64,000 nucleotides of DNA from Minisyncoccota bacterium (GCA_041650615.1 JBAZKU010000001.1:524854-588853), one strand, 5' to 3'. Positions 2,439-52,588 are shown, counted from the stretch's first letter. Translations and numbers: made by a program. The notes: generated by a model not told the origin, from the letters alone.

Positions 2439-4586
2439 ATGAAAAATACATATAAAAAATTTTTAATAATATTTGTTCTAATAGTAGGAGTATTGTTCAC
2501 TTATAATGTTGTTTCAGCTCAACCTGTTGCAAGTATTTCAGCCAGTCCGACAACTGTGGTTTCTGGTGGGTCATCTACTATTACCTGGTCATCCACCGGT
2601 ACGACAGGCTGTACCGCAAGCGGTGATTGGTCAGGATATAAATTTTACCAAGGTAGTCAATCAACCGGTGCTTTAACTTCAACAAAAACTTATACAATTC
2701 AGTGTGATGATGTCGGAGTTGATTTTAGCAATATAGCATCAGTAACAGTTACGGTTACCCCCTCAGTTACCCCTCCATCTATCTCTTCTCCAACTGCTTC
2801 CAGTATTACTACTAGTTCTGCCACTTTGGGAGCAAATATAACTTCAAACGGAGGGGCAAGTAGTGTAACCCACGGTTTTTGTTTATCAAACAATCCTAGT
2901 TCAGTCCTAAGCAGTTGTACGACCGATAGCACTCCTGTAAATACCGGTTCCATTACCAAAAATTATACCGGCCTTGCTTCCGGCACCACTTACTATTATG
3001 AAGGTTATGCTAGAAATAGCGCTGGAACTTCCTATACTTCAATGACTTCTTTTACCACAAGTTCATCTACAACTGCTCCTTCTATCTCTTCTCCAACTGC
3101 TACTGCTATTACTGCTACTTCCGCTTTCTTAGGAGCAAATATCACTTCCAATGGAGGAGGAAGTATTTCAGACCACGGTATTTGTTATGTCGCCAATGAT
3201 CCATCCTTTGTTCCTATGTTGGGCAGAAGCAATACTACTTGCTCGCATCTTGGCGCTTTTTCAACTGGCGCTTTTTCATCTTCCTATTCCGGTCTTTCCC
3301 CTAATACCACTTATTACTTCACAGGTTATGCCACCAATAGTGTCGGGACTTCTTACACTACAACTGCTCATTTTACCACTTTAACTAATGCTATAAATGG
3401 TGTCTGTTCGTCTCCGGCTACTCATTACACTTGTACTTCTTCGGGGGCAAGCACCAACAAAGTAAGCGGCGCCACTTCTTGGACCTGGACTTGTCCTGGG
3501 TCTAATGGGGGAACTAATGCATCATGTACAGAAGCTAAAGGCACTTCTGCGGTTACCAGTTCTTACCCTGTTGCCAATACTAATGTTGCCAATGGAAATT
3601 CGGGAGGGCAATCAGTTTTTATCCCATATAGCTCTAGAGCATTTTATCTTTATAATTCTAGTTCTGTTCCTCCCCTTGATGGAATTACTGTGACATCTTA
3701 TTGTGCCAGTGGTAGCCAATGGAATAGCAGTAGTGGTACCTGCGCAGCAACTATTAATGGTAGTTGTTCTCCGACTCATTATAATTGTACCTCTCCAGCC
3801 GCAAGTACTAATGAAGTAAGCGGCGCCACTTCTTGGACTTGGACTTGTCCCGGATCAAATGGAGGAGCGAGCGCTTCTTGTTCGGAAGATAAAACTCTTC
3901 CTGATTTAACGGCGGGAGATATTACTCCAACCATAACTTCTGTGGGAACTGCGCTTATTTTTTCTTCAACCATTTCAAACATAGGCAATGCGTCTACGGG
4001 CACTCCTTTCAGCAACTTCTTTCAAGTGGCAACTGCGGCAAATGGCGGTGGCATAGTCAGCGATCTTGCTCCTAAGTCAATGGCGACCTTAACTTCAAAT
4101 ACATCAAACACTGCCACTTCTCCTTCATATACTTTCACATCCATCGGAACATACTCAGTGAGAGCTTGCGCGGATAAAACTTCATCAGCGGGTGGAGGTA
4201 TTATTGATGAATTAAACGAAGGCAACAACTGTTCTGGCGCTTGGGCAACTATAACAGTGGTAAATGCTGATACTCCGATTGATGGTTCCTGCGCATCAAA
4301 TCATTACTTCTGTTCGTCTCCGGGAGCGGCTATTGATAGAGTAGACGGCGCCTCTTCTTGGACTTGGACTTGTCCCGGGTCTCACGGCGGGAGCGATACA
4401 TCCTGTTCAGAAATAAAGATGCTGGACAACGGTTCTTGCGCAACGACACATTATAATTGTTCCGTAGGTACGAGCGTCAATAATGTGGAAAATTCCACTT
4501 CCTGGACATGGCAATGTAATGGTCTTGTAACGAATGCATCTTGTTCGGAGTCAAAAACCAAGAAGCCCGGATATAAAGAAAATTAA
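2439..4586 (+). CDS. Secreted/surface protein with tandem 95-aa repeats and four Cys-rich modules (paralog of 48-2408)
   Basis: Signal peptide MKNTYKKFLIIFVLIVGVLFTYNVVSA. Tandem repeat about nt 2760-3060 and 3060-3355. Four modules C-x-S-x-THY-x-C...SGATSWTWTCPGSNGG..ASC at about nt 3401, 3759, 4279 and 4428. Confidence 0.6.
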   Translation: MKNTYKKFLIIFVLIVGVLFTYNVVSAQPVASISASPTTVVSGGSSTITWSSTGTTGCTASGDWSGYKFYQGSQSTGALTSTKTYTIQCDDVGVDFSNIASVTVTVTPSVTPPSISSPTASSITTSSATLGANITSNGGASSVTHGFCLSNNPSSVLSSCTTDSTPVNTGSITKNYTGLASGTTYYYEGYARNSAGTSYTSMTSFTTSSSTTAPSISSPTATAITATSAFLGANITSNGGGSISDHGICYVANDPSFVPMLGRSNTTCSHLGAFSTGAFSSSYSGLSPNTTYYFTGYATNSVGTSYTTTAHFTTLTNAINGVCSSPATHYTCTSSGASTNKVSGATSWTWTCPGSNGGTNASCTEAKGTSAVTSSYPVANTNVANGNSGGQSVFIPYSSRAFYLYNSSSVPPLDGITVTSYCASGSQWNSSSGTCAATINGSCSPTHYNCTSPAASTNEVSGATSWTWTCPGSNGGASASCSEDKTLPDLTAGDITPTITSVGTALIFSSTISNIGNASTGTPFSNFFQVATAANGGGIVSDLAPKSMATLTSNTSNTATSPSYTFTSIGTYSVRACADKTSSAGGGIIDELNEGNNCSGAWATITVVNADTPIDGSCASNHYFCSSPGAAIDRVDGASSWTWTCPGSHGGSDTSCSEIKMLDNGSCATTHYNCSVGTSVNNVENSTSWTWQCNGLVTNASCSESKTKKPGYKEN

Positions 4587-4650: not shown

Positions 4651-6402
4651 ATGCAAATCAATAAGGAGCAATTGAAAAAAGTTATTTTAGACTCGGGAAT
4701 TGTTTCGCGTTCCGAACTTGACGAGGCAGTTAAAAAAGCAGAGGCAAAAAAACAAAAACTCGGCGATATTTTGTTGTCGGATGGTAAAATATCTGAAGCT
4801 GATTTAAAACGAATGGAAGCTTTTGTTTTAGAAATACCTTTTGTTAATTTAATTAATAAAAAAATTGATCCTTCCGTTCTTTCTCTTGTTCCGGAACCGA
4901 TTGCCAGAAATCATAACATTATTGCTTATAAAAAAAGCGAGACAGGTTTGGAGGTGGCCATGCTGGATGTTGACGATTTGCCGATAATAGATTTCATCAA
5001 AAAACGGGCGGGCGGAAAAATTCTACCCCGACTTACCGATACCGATTCAATAAAATCGGCGTTGGTGCAGTATAGAAAAAGTTTGCAGGCCGATTTTGAC
5101 AACATTATTCAAAAAGAATCCTTGTCTCTGAAAACCGATAAAGATTCAAAAGAGCTGGAGAAAACGGAAAAAGAACTGAAAGACTTGGCTGAAGATTTAC
5201 CGGTAATTAAAATCGTTGATTCCTTGATTTCTCACGCCATCTTGCAAAATGCTTCCGATGTTCATATTGAACCGGGAGAAAATGAATTGATTGTAAGATA
5301 CAGAATAGACGGTATGTTGCATGATGCTATGATTTTGGATAAAAACACAGCGCCGGGCATTATTACTCGCATAAAAGTGCTGGCCAATTTGAAGCTTGAT
5401 GAAAAAAGATTGCCTCAAGACGGCAGATTTAAAATAGATCAAAATGGAGACAAAGTTTCCTTTCGTGTTTCCACTTTGCCGACTTTTTACGGCGAAAAAG
5501 CGGTAATCAGAATTTTAAAAGAAGGCTCACAGGGTTTTTCTTTGGAAATGCTTGGTTTTCATGGGGAAGGATTGGAAAGGATTCACGATTCCTTAAAGCA
5601 AAAAATTGGAATGATTCTTGCTACCGGACCTACCGGAAGTGGAAAAACGACCACTCTTTACACCATGCTTGAAATTTTAAATAAGCCGGAAGTGAATATT
5701 TCCACCGTAGAGGACCCGATTGAATATCAAATGACCAGAATAAATCAAACTCAAGTAAAACCGGAGATAGGGCTTACTTTCGCAAACGGACTTCGTTCTC
5801 TTCTTCGCCAAGACCCGGATATAGTGATGGTTGGAGAAATTCGCGACGGGGAGACGGCCGGATTGGCTATTAATGCCTCGCTTACCGGGCATCTTGTTTT
5901 GTCTACTATCCACACCAATTCCGCCGCGGGAGCAATTCCAAGATTGATGGATATGGGAGTTTTGCCGTTTCTAATAATTTCAACCGTTAAAACAATTATT
6001 GCCCAGAGGCTGGTGCGAAGACTTACCCCAAGCAAAGAAAAATATTTTTTATCAGCGGATGAACTGAAGAATTTGGCAAAGCTTATTGATTTGGACCGCA
6101 TGCTTTTGATATTAAAAAATGAAAAACTTATAGGACCGGGAGATACGTGGGGAAAAGTTCCTTTTTATAAGCCGGTGGGGAACAGCGAATCGCCGGACGG
6201 GTATTCGGACCGTATTGGAATTCATGAAGTGTTGAAAGTGACGTCTTCCATCAAAGAATTGATTATTCGGGGAAGTTCTCAGGATGAAATAGAAGCGCAG
6301 GCGAAAAAAGAAGGGATGATAACGATTCTGGAAGATGGAGTCTTTCAGTCGGTTTTAGGGAATACGAGCTTAGAAGAAGTGTTTAGAGTGGTTTCCGAGT
6401 AG
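4651..6402 (+). CDS. pilB: Type IV pilus assembly ATPase PilB (GspE family)
   Basis: GspE-N domain at the N-terminus. Walker A GPTGSGKTTTLYTML, Asp box IVMVGEIRD, His box HLVLSTIHTNSAAGAIPRL. Confidence 0.9.
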   Translation: MQINKEQLKKVILDSGIVSRSELDEAVKKAEAKKQKLGDILLSDGKISEADLKRMEAFVLEIPFVNLINKKIDPSVLSLVPEPIARNHNIIAYKKSETGLEVAMLDVDDLPIIDFIKKRAGGKILPRLTDTDSIKSALVQYRKSLQADFDNIIQKESLSLKTDKDSKELEKTEKELKDLAEDLPVIKIVDSLISHAILQNASDVHIEPGENELIVRYRIDGMLHDAMILDKNTAPGIITRIKVLANLKLDEKRLPQDGRFKIDQNGDKVSFRVSTLPTFYGEKAVIRILKEGSQGFSLEMLGFHGEGLERIHDSLKQKIGMILATGPTGSGKTTTLYTMLEILNKPEVNISTVEDPIEYQMTRINQTQVKPEIGLTFANGLRSLLRQDPDIVMVGEIRDGETAGLAINASLTGHLVLSTIHTNSAAGAIPRLMDMGVLPFLIISTVKTIIAQRLVRRLTPSKEKYFLSADELKNLAKLIDLDRMLLILKNEKLIGPGDTWGKVPFYKPVGNSESPDGYSDRIGIHEVLKVTSSIKELIIRGSSQDEIEAQAKKEGMITILEDGVFQSVLGNTSLEEVFRVVSE

Positions 6403-6429: not shown

Positions 6430-7647
6430 ATGCTTTTTTTATACAAAGCAAAACTAAAGAGCGGAGAAATTATAGAAGGAACGATGGAATCAGCAGACCG
6501 CTTTTCTCTTTCCCGCGAATTGAAATCTCGCGGGAATATTCCTATATCCATAAAAGAGAAAAAAAAGAGTTCTCTTGACCCTTCAAAAATATTCGGGTAT
6601 TTCTTTTCAAGAGTGAAAATTGGAGAACAAATTATTTTTACCAAAAACTTGAGCGGGATGCTTAAAGCCGGACTTTCTCTCTTTAGAGCCTTATCTGTTT
6701 TAAAAAAACAGACAAAAAATGCCGCTCTTGATAAGATTTTAACGTCACTTTCCGATGAAATAAATGCCGGGGGGACGCTTTCTTCCGGAATGGCAAAATT
6801 TCCGGATGTTTTTTCAAAACTTTTTGTTTCAATGACGCGCGCCGGAGAGGAATCCGGCAATCTCTCCGGCGCGCTTTCCGAAATAGGTATGAATTTGGAA
6901 AAAGCGCATTCTTTGACTAAAAAAATAAAAGGAGCACTTGTTTATCCGGGAGTAATTCTTTCCGCTATGATTTTAATAGGTATTTTAATGTTTGCTTTTG
7001 TCGTGCCGACACTGGCTAGCACATTTAAAGAACTTGGAGTGGAATTACCCACTTCAACCAAATTTATAATTGCCTTAGGAAATTTCTTTTCTCAATATTT
7101 AATTTTATCTCTTGTTTTAATAATAGGATCCGTGGTTGGAATAATTTCTTTCTTGCGCGCCTCTTTTATAAAAAAATATGTTGATTTTGTAATTATAAAA
7201 CTCCCTGTTATCGGCGATATGTCCAAGGAATTGAATACTGCTCGTACCGCGCGCACTATGTCTTCTTTATTATTGTCAGGCGTATCTATAATTAGGGCGA
7301 TTGAAATAACAGAAGATGTAGTACAGAATGTCTATTATAAAAAAGTTCTGAATCAGGCAAAAGAAGAAATAGAAAAGGGGGCTCCGTTCTCCAAAGCTTT
7401 TGAAGAGAGTCCGGATCTTTATCCAGTGATGATGACAGAGATGGTTCAGGTGGGGGAAGAGACTGGGAATCTGTCGGATATGTTGCTTCAAGTCGCTTCT
7501 TTTTATGAAGGAGAGGTAGAAAATAAAACAAAAAATCTTTCCACCATTATTGAACCGGTTTTAATGATTATTATCGGCGCCGCCGTCGGTTTCTTCGCCA
7601 TTTCCATGATTACCCCTTTGTACTCGGTGATGGATAATATAGAATAA
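6430..7647 (+). CDS. pilC: Type IV pilus inner-membrane platform protein PilC (GspF family)
   Basis: Two T2SS-F repeats (LKAGLSLFRAL...; IIRAIEITEDVVQN...). Three transmembrane segments, about 400 aa. Sits directly downstream of pilB. Confidence 0.85.
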   Translation: MLFLYKAKLKSGEIIEGTMESADRFSLSRELKSRGNIPISIKEKKKSSLDPSKIFGYFFSRVKIGEQIIFTKNLSGMLKAGLSLFRALSVLKKQTKNAALDKILTSLSDEINAGGTLSSGMAKFPDVFSKLFVSMTRAGEESGNLSGALSEIGMNLEKAHSLTKKIKGALVYPGVILSAMILIGILMFAFVVPTLASTFKELGVELPTSTKFIIALGNFFSQYLILSLVLIIGSVVGIISFLRASFIKKYVDFVIIKLPVIGDMSKELNTARTARTMSSLLLSGVSIIRAIEITEDVVQNVYYKKVLNQAKEEIEKGAPFSKAFEESPDLYPVMMTEMVQVGEETGNLSDMLLQVASFYEGEVENKTKNLSTIIEPVLMIIIGAAVGFFAISMITPLYSVMDNIE

Positions 7648-7722: not shown

Positions 7723-8304
7723 ATGGAAACTGCGCTCTCTCCCATTCTACGGTTGAAAGAACCCTCTTACCAAGGGAAACCATATCATATTATTGCCAAT
7801 AAACTTTTTTCCAAAAAGATGGCAATTATTCTTAAACCAACCGAGAAAAGATTTAATGTTAAAAACGATCTTTCCGAACTTTTGTCAGTGAAAGGGAAAG
7901 ACAGAAAAATTGATCGGATTGATCCTAATTTTATCGACTGGTTTGGAAATGTTACGATTAACGGACGCAAAGAAGAAACTGTGTCATTCTTGTATGAGTT
8001 TTTAAAGGATTTGTCTCATAAAGAGATAATATCGATAAGTAAAGAATATCGAGTATATAAAAAATTCAACATATTCGATGCAGTTTTATTGATCCAAAAG
8101 ATTATTGATATCAACGAAATCTGGATTCCAAACGCGACAAGAATTGCTATCCTTTTGGAAGAACAACACAATAATCTGGAGTGCAAACTGGAAGTATTTT
8201 GTGTTACTGGCGGAAAAATCAGAGTTCGTGTATACGAAACTAATCCCGCTATCAGGTACAGTGTTGGTGGATTTATTGTTTTTGGTAAAAGAGACGAGAT
8301 TTAA
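7723..8304 (+). CDS. Hypothetical protein (193 aa) downstream of pilC
   Basis: Intact ORF with an upstream AGGAAGGA Shine-Dalgarno sequence. No recognisable motif. Confidence 0.4.
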   Translation: METALSPILRLKEPSYQGKPYHIIANKLFSKKMAIILKPTEKRFNVKNDLSELLSVKGKDRKIDRIDPNFIDWFGNVTINGRKEETVSFLYEFLKDLSHKEIISISKEYRVYKKFNIFDAVLLIQKIIDINEIWIPNATRIAILLEEQHNNLECKLEVFCVTGGKIRVRVYETNPAIRYSVGGFIVFGKRDEI

Positions 8305-8344
8305 ATTTGGGCCCTTTGATATTTTTTCTATATCTTGGGGCCTT

Positions 8345-9805
8345 TTAATTTTTCACTTCCTGCCAAGAAAGTATTTGGTAGTTGTCGGAAGTTAAAGGAA
8401 AACTCGGAGGGGGAGCGTAAAGCAGATTGGCATCATAGGCTATGTTTCTGGTAGTGTATCCGGTTCCATCAGTATAAGCAAATCCATATCGGTCGTGAGA
8501 GGCAATCATTCCATAAAGAGAAATAGTAGAACGGTTTTCGTATTCACAACTACTTCCCCCATAATAAAATCTCCCCACATTGTCGTTTTGCGCTATTAGG
8601 GCGGCGTCTATTTTTAAATCATTGTCGCTAATCATCCCAACTTGAATTCCTCCCTGTCCGATTAATCCCAGGGAGTCTGTGCCATTATAGTTGGTATAAA
8701 GAATATCATTATTTACTATGATATTTTTAAATTTTGTTGTATCGGTCGGCACTGGTAAATCAGCGGCAGTAATGGTTAAACGAGCATTATTTATTTGACC
8801 GTCAATTACCAGATGGTCTTCCATAAAAATTATCCCATTTAACGGGAAAGGATAATTGCCTTGGAGAGTTTCTGTGCCAACGCTCCAACTTACGCTAGTT
8901 CCCCAGCAATCTCCCAAATCCGCCCAAGAATTTATTTTATATAAATCAAAAGTATTATTGGTTTTTAAAACTATATGGTATCCGACATATCCACTTCCGG
9001 CAGCATCTCTATAGAATCCATTTTCCGAATCTGCGTCATCTTTTAAAGTTGCCAAATCCGTTGTAAAACCTGAAAAATCGATTGTCGGCTGGCTTATTAA
9101 ACGTCCGGCTTGAAATACATCCGGGCGGGAAGGAATAGAACTCGGATTTGCTTCGGCTGCTTGGTAACTTTCGTCAATCCCGGTTGCCGGAGGAACTCTC
9201 ACGTGGGTATGCACCCCGATTTCATTTTCACCATAATGGTCGGGGTCATTGTAAGTTGTTACTCCGCTGGTAATTATATTATGAGCAAGCCCGTCAAAAC
9301 GAATACCTCCATTTGAATGAATAGGCCCGAAAATTTCTGTGCCTTGTCCAAATCGCATATTGGCATGTCCGGCAAAAGCAAATTTGGCAATTGATGGTTT
9401 TGCCACCCTGCTTTCTATTTTTCGCAAAATTGAAGGGTCTGCTAAAGTGGAACCGGTAGATTTTATTTTAACCAGAGTTGAACCCATTGAAGGGGCGGTA
9501 ATTTCAAGAGAAAATTGTCCGACAGTAGTTCCATTTTTGTCTTTTAAGAGATGTACATAAGGTCCATCCACTTCAGTGCCGTCTTTATAATCTGATGGAG
9601 CATGAGCCAAATGCCAGCGATAATAATCTATCCCAGCTTCAGCTATTTGAAATGATTGTTCTCTGTTAAAAGTTTCCCGTCCGCTTTTTATGGATATGGC
9701 TGCCCAACCCGCAAGCGCGGTAATAATACAAATAGATACTGCGCCGAAAATCACCACGTAAATTAGAAGTATTCCCTTATTCTTTTGAATATTTTTCCTT
9801 TTCAT
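8345..9805 (-). CDS. Membrane-anchored protein with PilX-like N-terminus; last gene of the minor-pilin operon
   Basis: N-terminal transmembrane segment ILLIYVVIFGAVSICIITALAGWAAIS followed by ...FQIAEAGIDYY (resembles PilX_N). Co-oriented with two prepilin genes. Confidence 0.45.
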   Translation of the reverse strand: MKRKNIQKNKGILLIYVVIFGAVSICIITALAGWAAISIKSGRETFNREQSFQIAEAGIDYYRWHLAHAPSDYKDGTEVDGPYVHLLKDKNGTTVGQFSLEITAPSMGSTLVKIKSTGSTLADPSILRKIESRVAKPSIAKFAFAGHANMRFGQGTEIFGPIHSNGGIRFDGLAHNIITSGVTTYNDPDHYGENEIGVHTHVRVPPATGIDESYQAAEANPSSIPSRPDVFQAGRLISQPTIDFSGFTTDLATLKDDADSENGFYRDAAGSGYVGYHIVLKTNNTFDLYKINSWADLGDCWGTSVSWSVGTETLQGNYPFPLNGIIFMEDHLVIDGQINNARLTITAADLPVPTDTTKFKNIIVNNDILYTNYNGTDSLGLIGQGGIQVGMISDNDLKIDAALIAQNDNVGRFYYGGSSCEYENRSTISLYGMIASHDRYGFAYTDGTGYTTRNIAYDANLLYAPPPSFPLTSDNYQILSWQEVKN

Positions 9806-9809
9806 CTCA

Positions 9810-10430
9810 TTATAAATTATCTTTCAGGTTTCTTATTGAAACTTGAGTAGTCATTGTTAAAGGCGAAGGCGGTTTATTAATATCTTTATCCAGAACGACC
9901 GTTATCTTTACTAGACGAACAGCCGGTATGCTGACTGGAGAAGGGAGAGATGAAGTAGTTCCATCATAATTTTCGTCATAATAGTCAAAAATAACGGTGT
10001 TGGTAATGTAAGGAATAAAAGTTGTTATAACTTCATTGGAAGGGTTATAGGAAAGCGGGCTGCCTGTCGGTTTTATTATTCCTTTTTTTATGGAACCATT
10101 ATCAAGAAAATATCTTACTTTCTCTCTCAATCCGTCATTATCTATATCCGAATAAATTGAGAAAGTTGTAGTATTTGCTTGGTCAATAGTATAGGCTCCG
10201 GTGTCGGCAGGCCCTGCTGTGCGTATTTCCGCTGTGATTGTTTTAAAGGCTGTCCTCGTAGCATCAACATCTTCCAGTCCGTTTGAGATAAATGTATTGT
10301 AATTAAAAATATTTTTTACAAAGAGAGTTATTGCCATTAATATCATTATAAAAATAGACATAGCAAAAAGAATTTCAATAAGAGTAAACCCGCATATTAA
10401 CTTTTTTTTGTTTTCTTTATCCATATCCAT
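9810..10430 (-). CDS. Prepilin-type N-terminal cleavage/methylation domain protein (type IV pilin/pseudopilin)
   Basis: Class III signal KKKLICG|FTLIEILFAMSIFIMIL. Confidence 0.8.
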   Translation of the reverse strand: MDMDKENKKKLICGFTLIEILFAMSIFIMILMAITLFVKNIFNYNTFISNGLEDVDATRTAFKTITAEIRTAGPADTGAYTIDQANTTTFSIYSDIDNDGLREKVRYFLDNGSIKKGIIKPTGSPLSYNPSNEVITTFIPYITNTVIFDYYDENYDGTTSSLPSPVSIPAVRLVKITVVLDKDINKPPSPLTMTTQVSIRNLKDNL

Positions 10431-10434
10431 TTTA

Positions 10435-11400
10435 TTAAGGCACTAAGACTATATTTTTTTGCTGCCACCCAGGAGAAGAGGATGTAATATCAATAGAATT
10501 TATTGATGCTTGGTAGCCTGTTTTGGTGACAGTCAAAGTATAATTTCCTGTTTCAAGTCCATTCCAAAAAACTTGACCTGGAGTTTCACATAAATCAGTA
10601 GAAGTTATTTTAGTTTGGTCAAAATCGGATTTTTGCAAGTGAACAGATGCTCCATCTATTGCCGTACCCGAAGAATCTCTTACGGAAACCAAGAGCGCCC
10701 TATTTAAATGTTCTACGGCAATAAATTGGATTGATTTGTTTTCATTAGGATCAATGGAAAGCGGACTGATTGGTATTGTCCCGGCTATATCATAAGCGCT
10801 TTCTGATGGTGAAATTGAATATAAATCCCATTCAAGATCTGTTATGTTTTTAAGTCCAGTGTCATTTGTGGTAAAAGTTTGAGAATATTTTAAGACCGAA
10901 GGTGTACCTATTAATTTTGCTCCCGATAGAGTGAAAGGAATACTTGGCAAGGCGACACAAGAATTGTCTATACTTGAAACATCAAGCGAGCTTAAGAGGT
11001 CAATAGAAAAACTTACTTGAGTAACCTGTTGCATTACAACGGTTGCGTCTAATTTGACCGGATTCGGACCGGCCACTCCGTCGGACGGATATGTTTGATC
11101 TTGGGAATATCCCACCTTGGTTGCAGTAATATTATAAGCATTTGTGCCTGGAACAGCGTCAATTATTTTCAGCCATCCATCGTTATCCGTTACTTCATCT
11201 ATTATTGTGTCTGGGTCTGTTTGGGTATTTACAATGTGAACAGAAGCTCCCGGAACCGGAATTCCCGCAGAATTGAAGACTCTGATGAATAATGCCCCGT
11301 TGGTGGAAGTGCTTTCAAGGGCATGCGGAGCAATCAGGGTGGTAAAGTTTAATATTGAAGAATACTTGCAATTTGAGCAAGAAATATCAAGATCCGCCAT
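10435..11400 (-). CDS. Protein with two carboxypeptidase-regulatory-like (CarbopepD_reg/PEGA-like) beta-sandwich domains, inside the pilin operon
   Basis: Segments RVFNSAGIPVPGASVHIVNTQ...GWLKI and SVRDSSGTAIDGASVHLQKS...GNYTLTVTKTGYQ. The first in-frame ATG (MADLDIS) is at 11400; the longer called ORF begins at a TTG. Confidence 0.4.
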   Translation of the reverse strand: MADLDISCSNCKYSSILNFTTLIAPHALESTSTNGALFIRVFNSAGIPVPGASVHIVNTQTDPDTIIDEVTDNDGWLKIIDAVPGTNAYNITATKVGYSQDQTYPSDGVAGPNPVKLDATVVMQQVTQVSFSIDLLSSLDVSSIDNSCVALPSIPFTLSGAKLIGTPSVLKYSQTFTTNDTGLKNITDLEWDLYSISPSESAYDIAGTIPISPLSIDPNENKSIQFIAVEHLNRALLVSVRDSSGTAIDGASVHLQKSDFDQTKITSTDLCETPGQVFWNGLETGNYTLTVTKTGYQASINSIDITSSSPGWQQKNIVLVP

Positions 11401-11804
11401 TTTATAATCAGCAGGAGACAATCATTTGGAATTCCGTCGATTGTTCCATCAAACGGGTCGTCAATGCTTCTAATTGAGGTCACAATAGTAAAAGAATAAT
11501 TATCTCGTAGAACATTTTCAGTTCTTGTGATTTTCCCCGCCGGCAATCCTCCTATAATACCCACATCTTGATAAGGCAAATTGCGGATAATTTCAAATTT
11601 TTCATTGGCTATGGCGGTAGCGGCAATTTTTGCCCGCGATACTGAAACACTATTCATTAACACGCCAAAAGATTGATAAGCGGCTAAGGCTACCAGAATA
11701 AAAACTGCGGTACCAACCAATATTTCAATCAAAGTAAACCCGCGCACTAGAGACTTTATTTTTAGTGTGTGGGTAAACCCTTTTTGATGAAAATTAAAAT
11801 TCAT
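11349..11804 (-). CDS. Prepilin-type pilin (type IV pilin/pseudopilin), first gene of the minus-strand operon
   Basis: Class III signal SLVRG|FTLIEILVGTAVFILVALAAYQSF. Confidence 0.8.
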   Translation of the reverse strand: MNFNFHQKGFTHTLKIKSLVRGFTLIEILVGTAVFILVALAAYQSFGVLMNSVSVSRAKIAATAIANEKFEIIRNLPYQDVGIIGGLPAGKITRTENVLRDNYSFTIVTSIRSIDDPFDGTIDGIPNDCLLLIIKWRILIFLAQIASILQY

Positions 11805-11846
11805 AACCAGTTATATTTTAGCAAATTATGATATACTTTACTATAT

Positions 11847-14084: not shown

Positions 14085-15788
14085 ATGCAACGATATTCTG
14101 AACTATTAAGGACAATTCTGGAAAAAAGAGGCATAAAAACCGGCGCTGAAGCCGAGATTTTTTTGAATCCGGATTATGAACGAGACTTACATGATCCATT
14201 TGAAATGAAGGATATGGAAAAAGCTTGCGTAAAGCTTTTTGAGACGATAGAAAACAAAGAAAAAACGGTTATTTATGCCGATTATGACTGTGATGGCATT
14301 CCCGGAGCAGTCATTTTAAAAGATTTATTTAAAAAAATAGGTTATACAAATTATGAAGTTTATATTCCAGGAAGAAATGATGAAGGTTATGGATTGAATC
14401 TTTCTGCTATCAAACAATTTACTGAAAAAAGGGTAAAACTTTTAATAACTGTTGATCTTGGCATTACAGCCGTTTCTGAAGTGGCGCAAGCGGAAATTGA
14501 TGGAATTGAGGTAATTATTACGGATCACCATTTACCAAAACAGAAAGTTCAGGATATAAAAAATAATTTTTTACATCCTGGACTTTCTTTACCTCACGCT
14601 TATGCCATTTTAAATCCGAAAGTGGATGCTTATCCTGAAAAAATGTTATGTGGATCTGGAGTAGTATTCAAATTAGTGCAAGGATTTATAAAAAAATACG
14701 GCGAATTTTACAAAATAAATATTGGTTGGGAAAAATGGTTGCTTGATATGGCTGGTTTAGCTACGCTTTCCGACCTAGTGCCTCTTTTAGGGGAGAACAG
14801 AGCTATCGCGTATTTTGGGATGAAGGTTTTAAGAAAATCTTCCCGTCCTGGTTTACAAAAACTTCTCGCTAAAATGAACATTGATCAAAAATATTTAACC
14901 GAAGACGATATCGGTTTTATGGTAGTGCCTAGACTAAATGCTGCCTCACGAATGGATAATCCCATGAAAGCGTATGAACTTCTTTCCACTGAAGATGAAA
15001 CAAAAGCGGGAGTTATTGCGAATCATTTGTCAAAAATAAATGACGACAGAAAGATAATAGTTGCTAATATTATGAAAGATGTAAATAAAAAATTTGGCAA
15101 AAGTCCTTTGCGGGAAATAAAAGAAGTCATCGTAATAGGCAATCCATTGTGGAGAGTAGGAGTATTGGGACTTGTAGCCGCTAAAATATCAGATGAATAT
15201 AAAAAACCGGTTTTTGTTTGGGGTAAAGATGAAAATGATCTTATAAAAGGTTCCTGCCGTTCCGATGGATCGGTATCTCTTGTTGAGCTTATGACTGAAA
15301 CCCGCGAATTTTTTATGGAATTCGGTGGACACGAATTTGCCGGTGGATTTACCGTGCATAGCGAGAAAATTCATTTCTTGGAAGAAGCTCTTTCTGTTTC
15401 TTACTACAAAGTAAAGCGCGATAAAATAGAATCGGAAATAATTTATGATATTAAATCCGATTTGGGTGCGGTAAATATGAAAAATTGGCGCGAGATAGAA
15501 AAACTTGCTCCTTTTGGACTGGCTAATCCAAAACCGATTTTTCTTTTTGAGGATGTGAAAGTGGAGAATATTAAAAAATTTGGCAAAAATGGTTCAGGAG
15601 AACATTTAGAGATTACCTTTTCCGATAAAAGTGAAAATAAAATCAAAGCAATTTCTTTTTTCTCCAATAATGAATCTTTTAAAACCTCTTTGTCTGAAGG
15701 CATAAAAGTAAATCTTCTGGCCACCTTTGATTTATCCAGGTTCAGAGGCAGGGAAGAGCTAAGACTGCGAATAATTGATATACTATAA
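14085..15788 (+). CDS. recJ: Single-stranded-DNA-specific exonuclease RecJ
   Basis: DHH motifs DYDCDGI and ITDHH; DHHA1 region with GGHEFAGG. Confidence 0.88.
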   Translation: MQRYSELLRTILEKRGIKTGAEAEIFLNPDYERDLHDPFEMKDMEKACVKLFETIENKEKTVIYADYDCDGIPGAVILKDLFKKIGYTNYEVYIPGRNDEGYGLNLSAIKQFTEKRVKLLITVDLGITAVSEVAQAEIDGIEVIITDHHLPKQKVQDIKNNFLHPGLSLPHAYAILNPKVDAYPEKMLCGSGVVFKLVQGFIKKYGEFYKINIGWEKWLLDMAGLATLSDLVPLLGENRAIAYFGMKVLRKSSRPGLQKLLAKMNIDQKYLTEDDIGFMVVPRLNAASRMDNPMKAYELLSTEDETKAGVIANHLSKINDDRKIIVANIMKDVNKKFGKSPLREIKEVIVIGNPLWRVGVLGLVAAKISDEYKKPVFVWGKDENDLIKGSCRSDGSVSLVELMTETREFFMEFGGHEFAGGFTVHSEKIHFLEEALSVSYYKVKRDKIESEIIYDIKSDLGAVNMKNWREIEKLAPFGLANPKPIFLFEDVKVENIKKFGKNGSGEHLEITFSDKSENKIKAISFFSNNESFKTSLSEGIKVNLLATFDLSRFRGREELRLRIIDIL

Positions 15789-15790: not shown

Positions 15791-16273
15791 ATGAAAAAAG
15801 ATAAAATTACAATTTATACAGATGGGGCGGCCAGAGGGAACCCTGGACCGGCTGGTTGGAGTGCTATTTTAATTGACGAGAAAAAAATTTTTGAAATTGG
15901 CGGAGCCTCTAAACATGCAACAAATAATCAAATGGAACTTACAGCTCCTATTGAAGCGTTAAAATATTTACAAAAGACTTGCGTTAGGCAAGACCTAGCG
16001 CAAACGGTGGAGATTTTTTCCGATTCAAAATATGTAATTTTAGGAATTACCGAATGGATTTTTAATTGGCAGAAAAATAACTGGAGAAATGCCGCCAAAA
16101 AACCGGTTTTAAATAAAGAGCTTTGGCAAGAGCTTTATAACCTTTCGGAACAGTTTAAAATCAAATGGACTTATGTCGAAGGGCACAGCGGATATAAATA
16201 TAACGAACGCGCGGACGAAATTGCCACCAATTTCGCGGACGGGAATAAAATAAAACTTAAAAAAGAAAAATAA
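15791..16273 (+). CDS. rnhA: Ribonuclease HI
   Basis: IYTDGAARGNPGPAGW...NNQMEL...EGHSGYKYNERADEIA. Confidence 0.9.
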   Translation: MKKDKITIYTDGAARGNPGPAGWSAILIDEKKIFEIGGASKHATNNQMELTAPIEALKYLQKTCVRQDLAQTVEIFSDSKYVILGITEWIFNWQKNNWRNAAKKPVLNKELWQELYNLSEQFKIKWTYVEGHSGYKYNERADEIATNFADGNKIKLKKEK

Positions 16274-16296: not shown

Positions 16297-17769
16297 ATGC
16301 AAGATAAAATTTTTTATGCATCCTGTTTTGGTTTTGTGTTCGGAGTGCTTTTGCGCTCTTTTCTTTTTTTAAATTTACATTTTATTATTTTCTTGGCGAT
16401 AGTTTCTTTGGCATTATTCCTATTTTTCACTTTTATCACAAGAAATAAATGGGGGATTTTAATTTCCATTTTTGTTATAGCGTCTTCTTTCGGAATTTTT
16501 AGATTTCATATAGTTGACGTTCCCGCATCTTATGTTTTTGAATCAAAGGTTGGCCAGAAAATTTCTTTTTCCGGAATCATTATTGATGAGCCGGACATCA
16601 GGGAAAATAATCAAAAATTGACCATAAAAAAAGAAAAAACAAAAATTCTGGTAACCATGAATCCGGATGAAAATTTCAGTTACGGGGATGAAATAAAGCT
16701 TGAAGGAATTTTGGAAAAACCGGAAAATTTTATGACAGACCAAGGCATAGAATTTGATTATGTAAATTATTTACGTAAGGATGGAATATTTTACGTAATG
16801 AGATATCCTGAAATTGAAGTTATTTCGCGCGGAAACGGAAATACGATAAAAAGCGCGCTGTTTTATGCAAAAGAAAAATTTTTAGACAAAATGAATTTAG
16901 CCATCAGAGAGCCGGAATCATTATTGATGAGCGGTCTAATTTTGGGAGAGAAATCCTCTTTTAACGAGTCTTTAAAGCAAAGTTTTGTGGATACGGGCAC
17001 AATCCATATTGTTGCTCTTTCCGGATACAACGTGACAATCGTTGCCGAATGGATAATGAAAATTTTTTCCTCTTTTCCGAAAAATATAGGAATCGGAGCC
17101 GGAATAATATCTATTTTGCTCTTTGTTTTAATGACCGGCGGGTCTTCTACGGCAGTGCGGGCGGGGATAATGGCCACTCTTGCCTTGTTCGCTCGCCTTA
17201 TTGGGAGAAATTATGATGTAACGCGGGCACTAATTTTGGCTGGGGTATTTATGATTTTAATAAACCCTTTTGTTCTTGCTTTTGATGTTTCTTTTCAACT
17301 GTCTTTTATGGCGACGGTAGCCGTTATATTTTTTACACCCAAAATTGAAAAATATTTTTTGTGGATTACTCCTCGTTTCCAGTTGCGAGACATTGTTTCG
17401 GTCACTTGCGCCTGTTATATTTTTGTTTTGCCCTTTATTCTTTACAAGATGGGGAATCTTTCATTGGTGGCGTTGCCTGCTAATATTTTAATTTTGCCTT
17501 TTATTCCAATCACTATGGTATTTGGTTTTTTGACCGGTTTTGCCGGACTTATTTGGTATGTTTTTTCGGTTCCTTTGGGTTTTATTTCATATCTGATGCT
17601 TCATTACGAACTGGCTGTCATAAATTTTTTCTCCAATATTCCATTTGCCGCTTTGTCCGTACCTAATTTTCCTTTTATTCTCACACTCCTAATTTATGCC
17701 TATTTTATTTACAGACTTTTTGGCAAAAGCATTAGAAATTTTTTTCAACGTTCTCCCAATTTAGATTAG
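16297..17769 (+). CDS. comEC: ComEC/Rec2 DNA-uptake channel (N-terminal OB/DUF4131 plus competence transmembrane domain only, no MBL domain)
   Basis: Competence-domain signature HIVALSGYNVTIVA plus a polytopic membrane region. Confidence 0.8.
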   Translation: MQDKIFYASCFGFVFGVLLRSFLFLNLHFIIFLAIVSLALFLFFTFITRNKWGILISIFVIASSFGIFRFHIVDVPASYVFESKVGQKISFSGIIIDEPDIRENNQKLTIKKEKTKILVTMNPDENFSYGDEIKLEGILEKPENFMTDQGIEFDYVNYLRKDGIFYVMRYPEIEVISRGNGNTIKSALFYAKEKFLDKMNLAIREPESLLMSGLILGEKSSFNESLKQSFVDTGTIHIVALSGYNVTIVAEWIMKIFSSFPKNIGIGAGIISILLFVLMTGGSSTAVRAGIMATLALFARLIGRNYDVTRALILAGVFMILINPFVLAFDVSFQLSFMATVAVIFFTPKIEKYFLWITPRFQLRDIVSVTCACYIFVLPFILYKMGNLSLVALPANILILPFIPITMVFGFLTGFAGLIWYVFSVPLGFISYLMLHYELAVINFFSNIPFAALSVPNFPFILTLLIYAYFIYRLFGKSIRNFFQRSPNLD

Positions 17770-23364: not shown

Positions 23365-26300
23365 ATGGCTGAAAATGAATTAAGTAATCCCATGCGAAAC
23401 AACGGTTCACAAAGTGAACCTGTTTCTGACGGGACAGGGAAATCGGAATCCGCGCTTCGAGAAGAAGCCGTTTTAAAATTTTGGAAAGAAAATAATGTAT
23501 TTCAGAAATCTTTAGAAAAAAAATCACCGAGAGGAGAATTTATTTTTTATGAAGGTCCGCCGACGGCTAATGGCAAACCGGGGATTCACCACCTTGAAGC
23601 GCGAGCATTTAAGGATGCTATTCCGAGGTATAAAACAATGCGAGGATTTCATGTGCGTCGCAAGGGCGGGTGGGATACCCATGGTTTGCCCGTTGAACTT
23701 CAAGTGGAGAAAAAATTGAACCTAGATTCAAAAATTGCCATTGAAAAATATGGTATTGCAAAATTTAATCAGCAATGCAAAGAAAGTGTTTGGGAATATG
23801 TTGACCTTTGGGGTAAATTTACCGAACGCATCGGTTATTGGGTAGACCAAGAAAATCCATATGTGACTTATCATAATAATTACATTGAATCTGTTTGGAA
23901 TATTTTAAAAAAAGTTAGTGCTCAAAATTTGCTTTATAAAGATTATAAAGTTGTGCCTTGGTGTCCGCGTTGTGGAACAGTTCTTTCCTCACATGAGCTT
24001 GCACAAGGATATGAAACCATAAAAGACTTGTCAGTGTACGTAAAATTCAAAATAAAAGAACAAGAAAACATTTTTATTCTTGCTTGGACCACTACACCGT
24101 GGACACTACCAGGCAACGTAGCGCTTGCTGTAGGCAAAAATATTGATTATGTAAAAATAAAAAAAGAAAATGAATTTTTGATATTAGCAGAAGAAAGACT
24201 TTCCGTTATAGACGGTGAATATGAAGTTATTGAAGAATTAAAAGGCAAAGATTTAATTGGTTTGGAATACGAACCGCTTTATCCATTTTTACAAAACACT
24301 ATTTCCGGAAAAGAAAAAGATAAAATGAATAAAGCCTATAAAATTTATAGTGCGAATTTTGTGACCACCGAAGATGGCACAGGGATAGTTCACACTGCCG
24401 TGATGTACGGACAGGACGACTTTGTGCTTGGTAATAAAGTAGGTCTGCCGAAACATCATCTCGTTGGCTTGGATGGAAAATTTTTAGCCGGTACAGGATT
24501 TTTGGAAGGCAGATTTGTACGGGATGAAGATGTGGCCGTGGATATTATAAAAGATTTGGCTCAAAAAGGACTTCTACTGAAAAAAGAAAAATATGAACAC
24601 TCCTATCCTCATTGCTGGCGTTGTCATACCGCCCTCATTTACTATGCTCGTGATTCTTGGTATATCAAAATGTCCGACTCGAAAATCAAACAGAAAATGA
24701 TTGAAGAAAATAAAGATATTAATTGGGAACCGGCACATATTCGTGATGGACGCTTCGGCGAGTGGTTGAAAGACATTAAAGATTGGGCAATATCGCGCGA
24801 ACGTTATTGGGGAAGTCCGCTTCCGGTTTGGATTTGTGAAACTTGTAAAAAGATTGAGGTTGTTGGAAGTTCGGAAGAATTGAAAGAAAAAGCAAAAAAA
24901 TCCGGGAATAAGTATTTTATAATGAGACATGGGGAAGCGGAGAATAATCTTGAAAGTGATACTGATTATAAAAATCTTAATCTCAACGCTAAATTAACAG
25001 AAAGAGGAATAGAAGAAATATTAACAAGTTGTAAAAATTTTAAAGAAAAAATTGATATAATTATTTCCTCGCCACTTGAACGAGCAAAAGAAACCACTAA
25101 AATAGTTTGTGGGCAGGTTGGTTTTCCATTTGAAAAAATCATTTACAATCAAAAAATTCAAGAATGGGAAGTTAGCTCCATTTTTAAAGGAAAGGAAAAA
25201 GCTATTTTTAAAAAATATTATGACGAAGATTATCTAGATAAACCAGATGAAGCTTTACCTGATGGAGAGAGTTTTGCGGAGGTAATTAAAAGAGTCGGTC
25301 AATTTATTTATGAGCTGGAAGTACAATATTCTAATAAAAATATTTTGATTGTCGGCCACGAAGGAGTAACTAATGCCTTAACTTTTGTAATAAAAGGATT
25401 GTCGTTAGATAGCTTATCAAAATTAAATAATCCATTTACTCCTATAAAAAATGCTGAAATAAGAGAATTTGATTTTATTCCGCTTCCGCATAATGAAAAC
25501 TATGAATTAGATTTGCACAGGCCTTACATTGATGAAATTCCGCTCGTTTGCGAATGCGGAGGAAAAATGACGCGTACCAAAGAAGTTATGGATGTATGGC
25601 TTGATTCCGGCGCTATGCCTTTTGCGCAGGACCATTACCCCTTTGACTTTGCTCGGGGTAAACCTTTTGAAAATAAAAAATTATCATATCCGGCTGACTT
25701 TATCTGCGAAGCGATAGACCAGACACGCGGGTGGTTTTACACTTTGCATGCGGTGGGAATTTTAATGGGAAAAGGGAAGGCATATAAAAATGTAATTTGT
25801 TTGGGACACTTGCTTGATGCCAAAGGGAAGAAAATGTCCAAATCCCTCGGGAATATTGTAGATCCGTGGGAGATGGTAGAGAAATATGGCGCGGATACAC
25901 TGCGTCTTTGGATGTATTCAATAAACCAGCCTGGGGAATCAAAGAATTTTGATGAAAAAACAGTTTTGGAACTTCATAGGCAGGTTTTTGGCTTGCTTTA
26001 TAATGTTTTGGCTTTTTATGAATTATATAGAAATAAAAATTTAGAAAATAATAATAGACCAAAATCAGATAATATTCTGGATATTTGGATTTTGGCCAAA
26101 TTAGATGAATTGATAGAATTAATAACAAAAAGTCTTGATAAATATAAGCTACTTGAGCCAACAAGAGCTATTCGCGATTTTATCGGCGACCTTTCTACTT
26201 GGTATTTGCGTCGTTCACGAGACAGAATTAAAGAAGGTAATATTGAAGCCAAGCAAACTTTATATTTTGTGTTGAAAAATCTGGCGAAATTAATGGCTCC

Positions 26301-26910
26301 ATTTGCCCCGCTTGCCGCCGAGGATATTTGGTTGAAATTAAAAAATAAAGATGATGCAGAAAGTGTGCATTTAACAAGTTGGCCTGTTAAAAAGTTTAAA
26401 ATTTTCTCTTTCAGTAAAACTAGGGTTTTAGAAAGCATGGAAACAGTCCGAAAAATAGTTACTCTTGGTCTTGAAGCCCGCCAGAAGGCAGGAATTAAAG
26501 TTCGTCAGCCGTTGAACCGATTGGAAATTGTAGCTGGGAGACTATTAAATGATTATCTTGAAATAATAAAAGATGAATTGAATGTTAAAAATGTTGATTA
26601 TTTATTAAAAATAAAAATAGGTTTATATAAAGTAACTCTTGATACGAAAATTACTCCCGAATTAAAACGAGAAGGAAATTATCGCGAACTAGCCAGAGCT
26701 ATTCAAGATATGCGCAAGAAAATGGGGCTTACCCCGAGTGATATTGTTTCTCTGGTTGTTGAAACAGATGAAGAAGGTAAAAAATTAATTCAAAAATTTG
26801 AAGTTGAAATAAAGAAAACTATTCTTGTGTCAAAAATAGAATTTAAACAAAACAATGGCGAGGAAATCAAAATAGATGAGCTAGTTTTTAAAATATTTAT
26901 TCAAAAATGA
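23365..26910 (+). CDS. ileS: Isoleucyl-tRNA synthetase with an inserted histidine-phosphatase-like domain of about 210 aa
   Basis: FYEGPPTANGKPGIHHLEARAFKD, editing/CP1 region, KMSKS at KMSKSLGN, C-terminal tRNA-binding region. Residues about 505-715 contain RHGE, SSPLERAKET and VGHEG motifs. Confidence 0.88.
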   Translation: MAENELSNPMRNNGSQSEPVSDGTGKSESALREEAVLKFWKENNVFQKSLEKKSPRGEFIFYEGPPTANGKPGIHHLEARAFKDAIPRYKTMRGFHVRRKGGWDTHGLPVELQVEKKLNLDSKIAIEKYGIAKFNQQCKESVWEYVDLWGKFTERIGYWVDQENPYVTYHNNYIESVWNILKKVSAQNLLYKDYKVVPWCPRCGTVLSSHELAQGYETIKDLSVYVKFKIKEQENIFILAWTTTPWTLPGNVALAVGKNIDYVKIKKENEFLILAEERLSVIDGEYEVIEELKGKDLIGLEYEPLYPFLQNTISGKEKDKMNKAYKIYSANFVTTEDGTGIVHTAVMYGQDDFVLGNKVGLPKHHLVGLDGKFLAGTGFLEGRFVRDEDVAVDIIKDLAQKGLLLKKEKYEHSYPHCWRCHTALIYYARDSWYIKMSDSKIKQKMIEENKDINWEPAHIRDGRFGEWLKDIKDWAISRERYWGSPLPVWICETCKKIEVVGSSEELKEKAKKSGNKYFIMRHGEAENNLESDTDYKNLNLNAKLTERGIEEILTSCKNFKEKIDIIISSPLERAKETTKIVCGQVGFPFEKIIYNQKIQEWEVSSIFKGKEKAIFKKYYDEDYLDKPDEALPDGESFAEVIKRVGQFIYELEVQYSNKNILIVGHEGVTNALTFVIKGLSLDSLSKLNNPFTPIKNAEIREFDFIPLPHNENYELDLHRPYIDEIPLVCECGGKMTRTKEVMDVWLDSGAMPFAQDHYPFDFARGKPFENKKLSYPADFICEAIDQTRGWFYTLHAVGILMGKGKAYKNVICLGHLLDAKGKKMSKSLGNIVDPWEMVEKYGADTLRLWMYSINQPGESKNFDEKTVLELHRQVFGLLYNVLAFYELYRNKNLENNNRPKSDNILDIWILAKLDELIELITKSLDKYKLLEPTRAIRDFIGDLSTWYLRRSRDRIKEGNIEAKQTLYFVLKNLAKLMAPFAPLAAEDIWLKLKNKDDAESVHLTSWPVKKFKIFSFSKTRVLESMETVRKIVTLGLEARQKAGIKVRQPLNRLEIVAGRLLNDYLEIIKDELNVKNVDYLLKIKIGLYKVTLDTKITPELKREGNYRELARAIQDMRKKMGLTPSDIVSLVVETDEEGKKLIQKFEVEIKKTILVSKIEFKQNNGEEIKIDELVFKIFIQK

Positions 26911-38239: not shown

Positions 38240-39319
38240 TTATGCTTCTTCCGAAAACTTTTTTCGAATCTCTTTCAATATCTGTTCGGATATTTTTTTA
38301 TTTTCTTTTAAGAAGGTGCGAGTAGAATCATAACCCACTCCCAATTTTACTTTTTCCCCGCCTCGCGTCGGCGAGCTTTCGCGAGTCGAGGCGGGCTTTG
38401 CTTCCCCGCTAGGTAGGTAGAAATACGAGTTTCCGGTTTTTTCTACAATTTTAAATTTCTCACCCAAAGCGATAATCTCGCCTTCTTTGGAAATTCCCTC
38501 GTTGTAAATAATATCAAATTCTGTTTGCTTAAACGGCGCAGCCACTTTATTTTTTACTACTTTGACGCGAGTGCGACTCCCGACGATATCTTCTCCCTTT
38601 TTAATTTGGGCGATTTTTCTGATATCCAGTCGGACAGAAGTGTAAAATTTCAAAGCTTTTCCTCCGGGAGTAGTTTCGGGATTGCCGAACATAACTCCGA
38701 TTTGCATTCTGATTTGATTTATGAAAATAACCGCTGTCTTGCTTTTGGCCACAATGGCGGTAAGCTTGCGAAGCGCTTGAGACATCAATCTCGCTTGTTT
38801 TCCTACATGATATGCTCCCATGTCTCCCTCTATTTCGTCTTTAGGCGTAAGAGCGGCTACAGAATCAACCACAATTACATCAATTTTTCCTGTTCGCACC
38901 AAACTTTCAACGATTTCAAGCGCCTGTTCGCCGGTATCTGGTTGAGAAATAAGGAGATTGTCAATATTCACTCCAAGCTTTTTTGTATAATCCGGATCCA
39001 TGGCGTGTTCGGCATCTATATAAGCGCAGACCCCTCCAAGTTTTTGCGCTTCAGCCACTATGTGCAAAGAAAGGGTCGTTTTGCCCGAAGACTCAGGTCC
39101 GAATATTTCAACGATTCTTCCGCGCGGTATCCCGCCAACGCCCAAAGCCATATCAAGTCCTATAGACCCTGTCGGTATCGTATTAATGTCCACCTTTGGC
39201 GAGTCGCCGAATTTCATTATTGATCCTTCTCCAAACTTTGCCTGAATTGCCTTTACAGCATCATCCAGCATTGATACCCCTACAGTTTTATCCTCTTTTT
39301 TCTCTTTTTTCTTTACCAT
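38240..39319 (-). CDS. recA: Recombinase RecA
   Basis: [20 protein letters not shown] Walker A; L1/L2 loops; 359 aa. Confidence 0.95.
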
Positions 39320-45689: not shown

Positions 45690-45737
45690 TTAGAAATAAC
45701 GATAACTTTGGTTTATACGCCTTAAAATGTATAACAA

Positions 45738-45770
45738 AAAACCACCCCGACGGGGGTGGTTTTTTGTTTT
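45738..45770 (+). terminator. Rho-independent terminator
   Basis: CCACCCC-GACG-GGGGTGG (45742-45759) followed by TTTTTTGTTTT. Confidence 0.8.
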
Positions 45771-47816: not shown

Positions 47817-47834
47817 ATATTTGTAATTAAACCG

Positions 47835-49907: not shown

Positions 49908-49927
49908 GTTATTATAAAAATATATTT

Positions 49928-50815: not shown

Positions 50816-50819
50816 AAAA

Positions 50820-52585: not shown

Positions 52586-52588
52586 ATT

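Follow-up and report, generated by a model that had tools for sequence, protein, structure and literature searches.

The DNA analysed here, 64,000 nucleotides from a Minisyncoccota bacterium (GCA_041650615.1, JBAZKU010000001.1:524854-588853; hereafter the window), carries on its minus strand, at positions 8345–11804, an operon of type IV pilin genes that converges with the plus-strand pilus assembly genes pilB and pilC. The original prediction, made without database searches, described a four-gene pilin operon, and four minus-strand open reading frames (ORFs) are indeed present in this interval. The operon nevertheless consists of three genes, here named A, B and C, and constitutes a tightly packed minor-pilin module of the type IV pilus of Paceibacteria, within the candidate phyla radiation (CPR). 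Its features are listed below in window coordinates, with a slash marking the cleavage site in the motifs.

10435–11804, minus strand: gene A, a modular type IV pilin of 456 aa when intact (fused translation compared with homologs; sister assemblies)
11419–11423, minus strand: frameshift site in A, GAT-TG versus GAT-TTG (DNA alignment)
11724–11741, minus strand: class III cleavage/methylation motif of A, VRG/FTLIE (motif scan; PF07963)
11326–11804, minus strand: pilin module of A, with leader, helix alpha1 and four-stranded head (model of homolog P0002)
10438–11298, minus strand: three tandem beta-sandwich domains of A (Pfam, model, Foldseek)
9810–10430, minus strand: gene B, a 206-aa prepilin (motif scan, PF07963)
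10374–10391, minus strand: motif ICG/FTLIE of B (motif scan)
8345–9805, minus strand: gene C, a 486-aa pilin-like protein (AlphaFold2 model, Foldseek)

A single-base deletion divides gene A

The first two of the four ORFs, one of 151 aa (11349–11804, minus strand) and one of 328 aa with a TTG start (10435–11421, minus strand), are two pieces of one gene, split by a T that is missing from this assembly. They share 73 nt in different frames. At the site of the split GATTTG is replaced by GATTG, the T being absent between positions 11421 and 11420, and joining of the pieces at ...GIPND/LSPADYK... (here the slash marks the join) yields a 456-aa protein whose restored junction reads ...GIPNDLSPADYK.... 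This junction (...IPND-L-SPADYK...) sits within the most conserved motif of the A family, DDPFDG-x7-D-x-SPADYK. A homolog search with the fused protein gave 1760 matches at E ≤ 1e-3, the best 120 of which were listed, and intact homologs of about 440 aa align with the fusion over its whole length, the closest among the matches listed being 76% and 74% identical. These intact homologs also carry the N_methyl and PF13620 domains in their precomputed annotation. By comparison, none of the aligned homologs has anything corresponding to the residues that the 151-aa ORF encodes beyond the shift (CLLLIIKWRILIFLAQIASILQY).

The origin of the split is established by alignment to related DNA and to two independent assemblies of the same organism. 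Against three intact relatives, all of which have the full codon, the window shows a 1-nt gap. A 147-kb contig in ENA (ERZ27247363) matches 19,805 bp of the window with no mismatch and one gap, the missing T, and a 26-kb Logan contig (SRR8542065) is identical across 15,195 bp apart from the same single gap. In both contigs gene A is one 456-aa ORF, identical to our reconstruction. Exact-sequence look-up located the split form only in the 598,563-bp NCBI/JGI contig, as MFA5095582.1 (151 aa) and MFA5095581.1 (321 aa). Three genes thus make up the operon, whose four-ORF appearance is caused by a single-base deletion in this assembly. Among 84 sequences, segments matching A lie in two frames in the window only, all 83 related loci (83/83) having them in one frame, and a frameshift as a trait of the family was rejected on this count (0/83). 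A programmed frameshift or an alternative genetic code was likewise rejected, since the alignment with relatives shows a plain 1-nt gap and the sister assemblies have the T. A second apparent frameshift, at 26907–27587/27541–28119, which might have marked the assembly as error-prone, was rejected, as these are two distinct genes encoding HAD and RecO.

The deletion is more probably a consensus error than a minority allele. A real allele present in part of the population, which would inactivate the tip pilin A or switch it on and off and would leave carrier cells with a truncated 151-aa pilin lacking its stalk, appears unlikely to us. It is the sole difference between the assemblies in 19.8 kb and it strikes a gene for a surface structure, a class that is often variable; furthermore, short-read assemblers seldom create single-base deletions in a 3-nt run. 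Against it, classical slipped-strand phase variation needs a run far longer than three T, the gene is intact in two of the three assemblies of the organism, and it is strongly conserved everywhere else. A true four-gene operon, with the leaderless 320-aa CarboxypepD_reg protein as a separate, PilY1-like non-pilin tip or adhesin subunit, has in its favour the two deposited proteins and the TTG start of the 328-aa ORF directly 3' of an in-frame stop in the second frame, and is effectively refuted by the restored frame, in which a single T abolishes the 73-nt overlap, by the conserved junction and by the loci and assemblies described above.

Accordingly, the supposed leaderless protein is the C-terminal module of the first prepilin, and the overlaps of a few nucleotides once described between the genes reduce to the frameshift overlap, the only one in the operon. 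The real junctions, A/B and B/C, have spacers of 4 nt each in the window; in relatives, the stop codon of B and the start codon of C overlap by 4 nt. The deposited record divides a conserved pilin gene into two proteins, and reading it at face value invents a leaderless component of the pilus.

Architecture of the encoded proteins

The N-terminus of A, VRG/FTLIEILVGTAVFILVALAAY, comprises a short basic leader ending in Gly, the motif FTLIE, whose Glu occupies +5, and a hydrophobic segment some 20 residues long. N_methyl (PF07963) matches the 151-aa ORF at 23.7 bits, above its cut-off of 21.2, and TIGR02532 matches A at 17.4, above its cut-off of 16.3. The G/FTLIE motifs of A and B are the only two in the whole 64-kb window, and the two genuine prepilins proposed from them are upheld. 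The 328-aa ORF is matched by CarboxypepD_reg (PF13620) in two stretches, with 57.3 bits against a cut-off of 32.3 (E = 2.1e-15), and by the SpaA prealbumin-like family (PF17802) with 31.7 bits. The CarbopepD_reg/PEGA-like assignment made earlier thus holds for CarboxypepD_reg, whereas CarbopepD_reg_2 (PF13715; 24.1 bits versus 32.2) and PEGA (PF08308; 14.7 bits versus 20.8) fall below their cut-offs and overlap the PF13620 match.

A was modelled with AlphaFold2 through its intact homolog P0002 (40 aligned sequences), with a predicted local distance difference test (pLDDT) score of 84. The model contains a 50-residue helix (residues 13–63), strands between residues 83 and 146 that form a small four-stranded head, and then three beta-sandwich domains. 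It was mapped onto A with an offset of +12 residues, so that the coordinates of the pilin module are approximate. The beta-sandwich domains of A span about 11005–11298, 10711–10992 and 10438–10698, and the first and third are the CarboxypepD_reg matches. Their best Foldseek matches in the Protein Data Bank (PDB) are stalks of the CnaB/immunoglobulin (Ig) type, namely TIE (6fwv, E = 2.6e-13), PitA, SdrD, BcpA and SpaA; a sequence profile of A found nothing significant among PDB sequences. Restored A thus carries a pilin module, PF13620 in two stretches and PF17802 in one polypeptide, and is a modular type IV pilin composed of a class III leader, a small head and a rigid three-domain Ig-like/CnaB-like stalk. 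Distant Paceibacteria versions of A reach about 600–650 aa, a length that suggests a fourth beta domain.

The most conserved stretch of the protein is an invariant loop in the pilin head (residues ~112–147, window ~11350–11470), with the pattern R-x-x-D-D-P-F-D-G-x7-D-x-S-P-A-D-Y-K followed by C-x-x-C-K; yet it is modelled with a pLDDT below 50, and the frameshift falls inside it. The loop and its CxxC pair may constitute a metal-binding or disulfide site.

The architecture of A falls within known classes. Raynaud et al. 2021 list the combination of IPR012902 with PF13620 among the 15 commonest modular-pilin architectures, CPR examples included, and describe PF13620 in modular pilins as a carbohydrate-binding-like fold. 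In view of this catalogue, and of a family that gave 1760 matches, a CarbopepD_reg component in a type IV pilin operon is not the rarity it was taken for. The modular pilins of the Streptococcus sanguinis PilB/PilC class likewise join a class III signal and pilin module to extra domains, but they carry one functional module (vWA or lectin) where A has three tandem Ig-like domains, or apparently four in relatives of about 600 aa. The fold of these domains is shared with the CnaB/Ig stalks of BcpA, SpaA and PitA, the B-repeats of SdrD and TIE of Bacillus anthracis (Foldseek E 1e-13 to 1e-7). Unlike sortase-assembled pilins and MSCRAMMs, however, A has no C-terminal anchor, and the LPxTG sorting signal was not found on reading the 456-aa sequence, which ends in ...SSPGWQQKNIVLVP; A is anchored by a type IV pilin helix and belongs to a different assembly pathway.

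B is a conventional small prepilin. Its leader, ICG/FTLIEILFAMSIFIMILMAI, is matched by N_methyl (PF07963) at 20.4 bits, slightly below the cut-off of 21.2, and by TIGR02532 at 14.0 against a cut-off of 16.3. The N-terminus also gives matches to ComGF, ComGE and GspI, and a profile of the B family reaches the N-terminal helix only of solved pilins in the PDB (E = 7e-4). In such profile searches of the PDB, the globular regions of A, B and C match no solved structure.

The leader of C, NKG/ILLIY, is non-canonical. Members of the C family begin with a K/R-rich segment, followed by G, then x-[IL]-[IL]-[IV]-Q (Q is sometimes E, and is Y in this organism), and then AEAGIDYY. The Gly at –1 is invariant in a diverse set of members and present in at least 90% of a near set, and Q/E at +5 is common; such an N-terminus reads as a degenerate class III signal. 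C has no significant Pfam family, its weak matches being to G8 and Bactofilin (beta-helix). The PilX_N-like start noted in the original prediction is borne out in that the N-terminus is pilin-like and the predicted structure points to the PilX/GspK/ComZ class, but not at the level of the Pfam family: PilX_N (PF14341) gave no match to C of the window at E ≤ 1, and only weak matches in 3 of 31 diverse family members (best E = 0.019).

In the AlphaFold2 model of C (39 sequences, pLDDT 65), a helix (residues 10–64) and four strands (residues 83–135), together at window ~9401–9805 and with a pLDDT of about 60–88, precede about 335 beta-rich residues (~8381–9388) and a terminal strand (residues 477–484, ~8354–8377), and residues 137–246 and 437–475 have a pLDDT below 50. 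When the model was compared by Foldseek with 350,542 PDB chains, the only matches at E ≤ 1e-3 were chains A (5.9e-7) and B (2e-6) of ComZ (6qvi), with a probability of 1.00; the next matches, not significant, were to Thermus PilA2, from the same locus as ComZ. ComZ of Thermus thermophilus is a GspK-like pilin with a non-canonical N-terminus and a beta-solenoid inserted between its penultimate and last strands; it interacts with DNA and with PilA2, the adjacent pilin, and has been proposed to cap the competence pilus. Cyanobacterial PilX proteins share this design and have been proposed as tip plugs. C resembles these proteins in its size (about 490 aa), in its predicted order of helix, four-stranded sheet, beta-rich insert and final strand, in its non-canonical leader without Glu5, and in being encoded immediately behind a small pilin within a minor-pilin cluster. 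The partners differ, being PilA1–A4 in Thermus and A and B here, and binding of DNA by C is a prediction by analogy. We regard C as a probable, though not proven, pilin of the PilX/GspK/ComZ class, whose leader is degenerate (Gly at –1, and at +5 Gln, Glu or Tyr) and in which the large beta-rich insert is probably a beta-solenoid within the pilin fold. The kinship with ComZ is graded no higher than probable because the model is of moderate quality and the TM-score (template modelling score) is low.

Conservation of the trio and a proposed role at the pilus tip

The assembly genes facing the operon are the following.

4651–6402, plus strand: pilB, with MshEN and T2SSE ATPase domains (Pfam E = 4e-122; NCBIfam PilB/GspE)
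6430–7647, plus strand: pilC, T2SSF platform protein (Pfam E = 6e-56; NCBIfam PilC/GspF)

A scan of one genome per species found a relative of A in 211 genomes, and the best 80 loci were examined, corresponding to 79 genomes after de-duplication; the nearest relatives of the window are Nomurabacteria. A, B and C were all seen in 75 of the 79 genomes, always in the order A-B-C with B between A and C. In the 64 genomes for which the fetched DNA covered A, C and pilC, the last of these adjoins the trio, in convergent orientation in 40 (as in the window), in a co-directional pilB-pilC-A-B-C arrangement in 23 and otherwise in 1. This synteny supports a functional tie to the adjacent pilB/pilC genes, whose convergence with the operon in the window is confirmed. 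Median identities in the near and distant sets are 61%/47% for A, 56%/45% for B and 67%/53% for C, compared with 69%/48% for PilC and 62%/46% for TpiA. By this measure, A, B and C are as conserved as pilC and the glycolytic/housekeeping genes tpiA and pgk. In addition, recJ (14085–15788), an RNase H gene (15791–16273) and comEC (16297–17769), all on the plus strand, place recJ/comEC 2–6 kb from A, and tpiA, pgk, recJ and comEC often follow A-B-C across Paceibacteria in both gene arrangements.

The best explanation of these observations as a whole, and one we consider likely, is that A, B and C form a minor-pilin module transcribed as one unit, which works with the PilB ATPase and PilC platform. 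It would probably act as the priming or tip complex of the pilus. By analogy with GspI-J-K, FimU-PilVWX and ComZ-PilA2, the N-terminal helices of the three proteins may bring them together in the membrane, on the PilC platform. The resulting complex would start the polymerisation of a major pilin whose gene lies elsewhere and would finish at the distal tip. Placement at the tip is favoured because the bulky domains of A and C would not fit the pilus shaft. C would cap the fibre and the A stalk would project sideways or forward, and C and the stalk might be the first parts to touch a ligand. Raynaud et al. 2021 argue that modular pilins sit at the pilus tip, and the idea that CarboxypepD_reg-type domains do so at this locus is plausible.

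Like the GspI-J-K, FimU-PilV-W-X and ComGD-GG sets, A-B-C is a small, putatively co-transcribed group of minor pilins beside ATPase and platform genes, and C, like GspK and PilX, is the product of the last gene, the largest subunit and without Glu5. It differs from the GspH-K, PilV-X and ComGD-G sets in having three genes, not four, and in family-model scores that are all below cut-offs: the NCBIfam gspI, gspJ, ComGE and ComGF matches cover the N-terminal 40–75 residues only, gspJ scoring 29.4 against 64.85. Furthermore, A has a long Ig stalk, and the locus has no PilY1-like non-pilin adhesin. We found no paper describing the Paceibacteria trio or a ComZ-like protein in CPR. The trio fits the existing categories of modular pilin, small minor pilin and ComZ/PilX/GspK-class tip pilin, and adds no principle beyond modular pilins and ComZ/PilX-type tip pilins. 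Its interest is as a concrete candidate pilus tip for DNA scavenging or partner-cell contact in an uncultivated, nucleotide-auxotrophic lineage.

Several points weigh against this assignment. The A, B and C families are characterised from sequences and, for A and C, predicted models, and the model of C is moderate only, with a pLDDT of 65 and 146 residues below 50. Its global TM-score against ComZ (6QVI) is low, 0.20–0.22; a profile of 39 C family members gave 0 matches at E ≤ 10 among all PDB sequences, so that C has no sequence-level similarity to any solved structure; and the insertion point of its beta-rich region is deduced solely from the succession of secondary-structure elements. As noted, four minor pilins make up a canonical core set. 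The linkage to comEC may be incidental, since the intervening genes are housekeeping genes (tpiA, pgk, a HIT-family gene, recJ and rnhA). Finally, the major pilin is not in the window, and Pfam searches for Peptidase_A24 (PilD), PilT and PilM/N/O gave no match among the called genes (about 1–62.5 kb of the window), in agreement with the original prediction; the window therefore does not identify the filament that the trio joins.

The trio is conserved almost as housekeeping genes are, which speaks against a host-specific adhesin and favours a purely structural priming role or a universal ligand. As to the ligand, extracellular DNA passed to ComEC would be the best candidate because of the ComZ match and the recurrent comEC/recJ linkage. 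A conserved surface glycan is possible because PF13620 is carbohydrate-binding-like and the tip pilins of Saccharibacteria have been implicated in host or glycan binding. On this basis we tentatively suggest that A-B-C may be an extracellular DNA receptor of Paceibacteria, in which a ComZ-like beta-solenoid cap, C, is held by B and flanked by the A stalk, and in which the tip would capture environmental DNA and deliver it to the linked ComEC/RecJ machinery; we rate this specific proposal as possible, well short of probable. If true, it would explain the housekeeping-like conservation of a surface complex in organisms unable to make their own nucleotides, and the Thermus/cyanobacterial competence tip would gain a monoderm variant found across the CPR.

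A different function for the same tip, as mainly a host-attachment adhesin for episymbiosis with the domains of A binding host cell-wall glycans and no part in DNA uptake, is possible and, in our estimate, about as likely as the DNA receptor. The carbohydrate-binding-like description of PF13620 would suit it, and the structural neighbours of A are adhesin stalks, although domains of the CnaB type as a rule form stalks rather than binding modules. PilX1 and PilX2 of the Saccharibacteria strain TM7x, large-domain minor pilins implicated in host binding and glycan recognition, are similar by description: they are CPR minor pilins with big extra domains, lack predicted PilD signals and are proposed tip proteins. 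Their accessory folds, however, are a beta-jelly-roll and a beta-propeller, and they are poorly conserved, whereas A, B and C are highly conserved in Paceibacteria, across genera and at the level of housekeeping enzymes. Host-specific adhesins and the Saccharibacteria pilins diverge fast, the latter with only 10–25% query coverage across Patescibacteria, and the one structural relative of C, ComZ, is a competence pilin that binds DNA.

A short pseudopilus resembling those of type II secretion or Com systems, which would act as a piston to drive secretion or to move DNA across the cell wall and would never form a long fibre, seems to us improbable. The N-terminal hidden Markov model matches to GspI, GspJ, ComGE and ComGF point in that direction, but they span the shared N-terminal helix only and lie far below family cut-offs. 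Also in its favour, the ATPase and platform score almost equally as GspE/GspF and PilB/PilC, and PilT was not found in the window. Against it, pili and the lack of an outer membrane have both been reported for CPR cells, and a PilT gene may simply lie in another part of the genome, which is about 0.6 Mb in size.

Flanking features and other observations in the window

Two noncoding features flank the A-B-C operon.

8310–8342, no strand assigned: hairpin, candidate bidirectional terminator (RNA fold)
11805–11846, no strand assigned: divergent intergenic region between A and tpiA, 42 nt (ORF coordinates)

The hairpin is GC-rich, with a folding energy of –12.7 kcal/mol (z = –3.1 versus shuffled sequences), and lies between the convergent stops of C and a 193-aa ORF; it alone stood out in the promoter and terminator scans. 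Judging from the gene layout, the promoter of the operon must sit in 11805–11846 or within the 5' end of tpiA. Sigma-70-like matches at 11869–11840 and 11853–11825 (minus strand) are weak, and promoter-like sites are not above chance (18 versus 14.4 ± 4.4).

The 193-aa ORF (7723–8304, plus strand) is wedged between pilC and the 3' end of C and is called in all three assemblies of the organism. It has no match in Pfam, NCBIfam or PHROG, and no tblastn match among the 79 related genomes, where the gap between pilC and C is usually about 60 nt or less. It was considered as a fourth component of the system and rejected, for want of a family match and of a counterpart in relatives; it looks like a lineage-specific insertion.

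Directly upstream of pilB, on the plus strand, are genes for two Ser/Thr/Cys-rich repeat proteins of 786 aa (48–2408) and 715 aa (2439–4586). Both have N-terminal signal-anchors and resemble fn3 weakly, and a ...SWTWTCPGSNGG... module recurs in them. In relatives, large proteins with no Pfam match and only patchy similarity occupy the same position. The two proteins may be fast-evolving surface proteins tied to the pilus locus.

Between recA and ftsK lies a gene (39313–39666, minus strand) for a 117-aa membrane-anchored protein with a weak Glucodextran_B match and no prepilin motif; in Saccharibacteria TM7x, a pilin adjoins recA. An IleRS-type class I tRNA synthetase of 1181 aa (23365–26910, plus strand; tRNA-synt_1, Anticodon_1) contains a His_Phos_1 (PF00300) match between two tRNA-synt_1 matches, an unusual inserted domain. 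At about 45700–63100, a low-GC (0.28–0.33) polysaccharide cluster encodes two Wzy_C proteins of about 680 aa, GT1/GT2/GT4 glycosyltransferases, Wzm/Wzt-type ABC transporter components, sugar epimerases and dehydratases, a possible capacity for glycosylation of the surface or of pilins.

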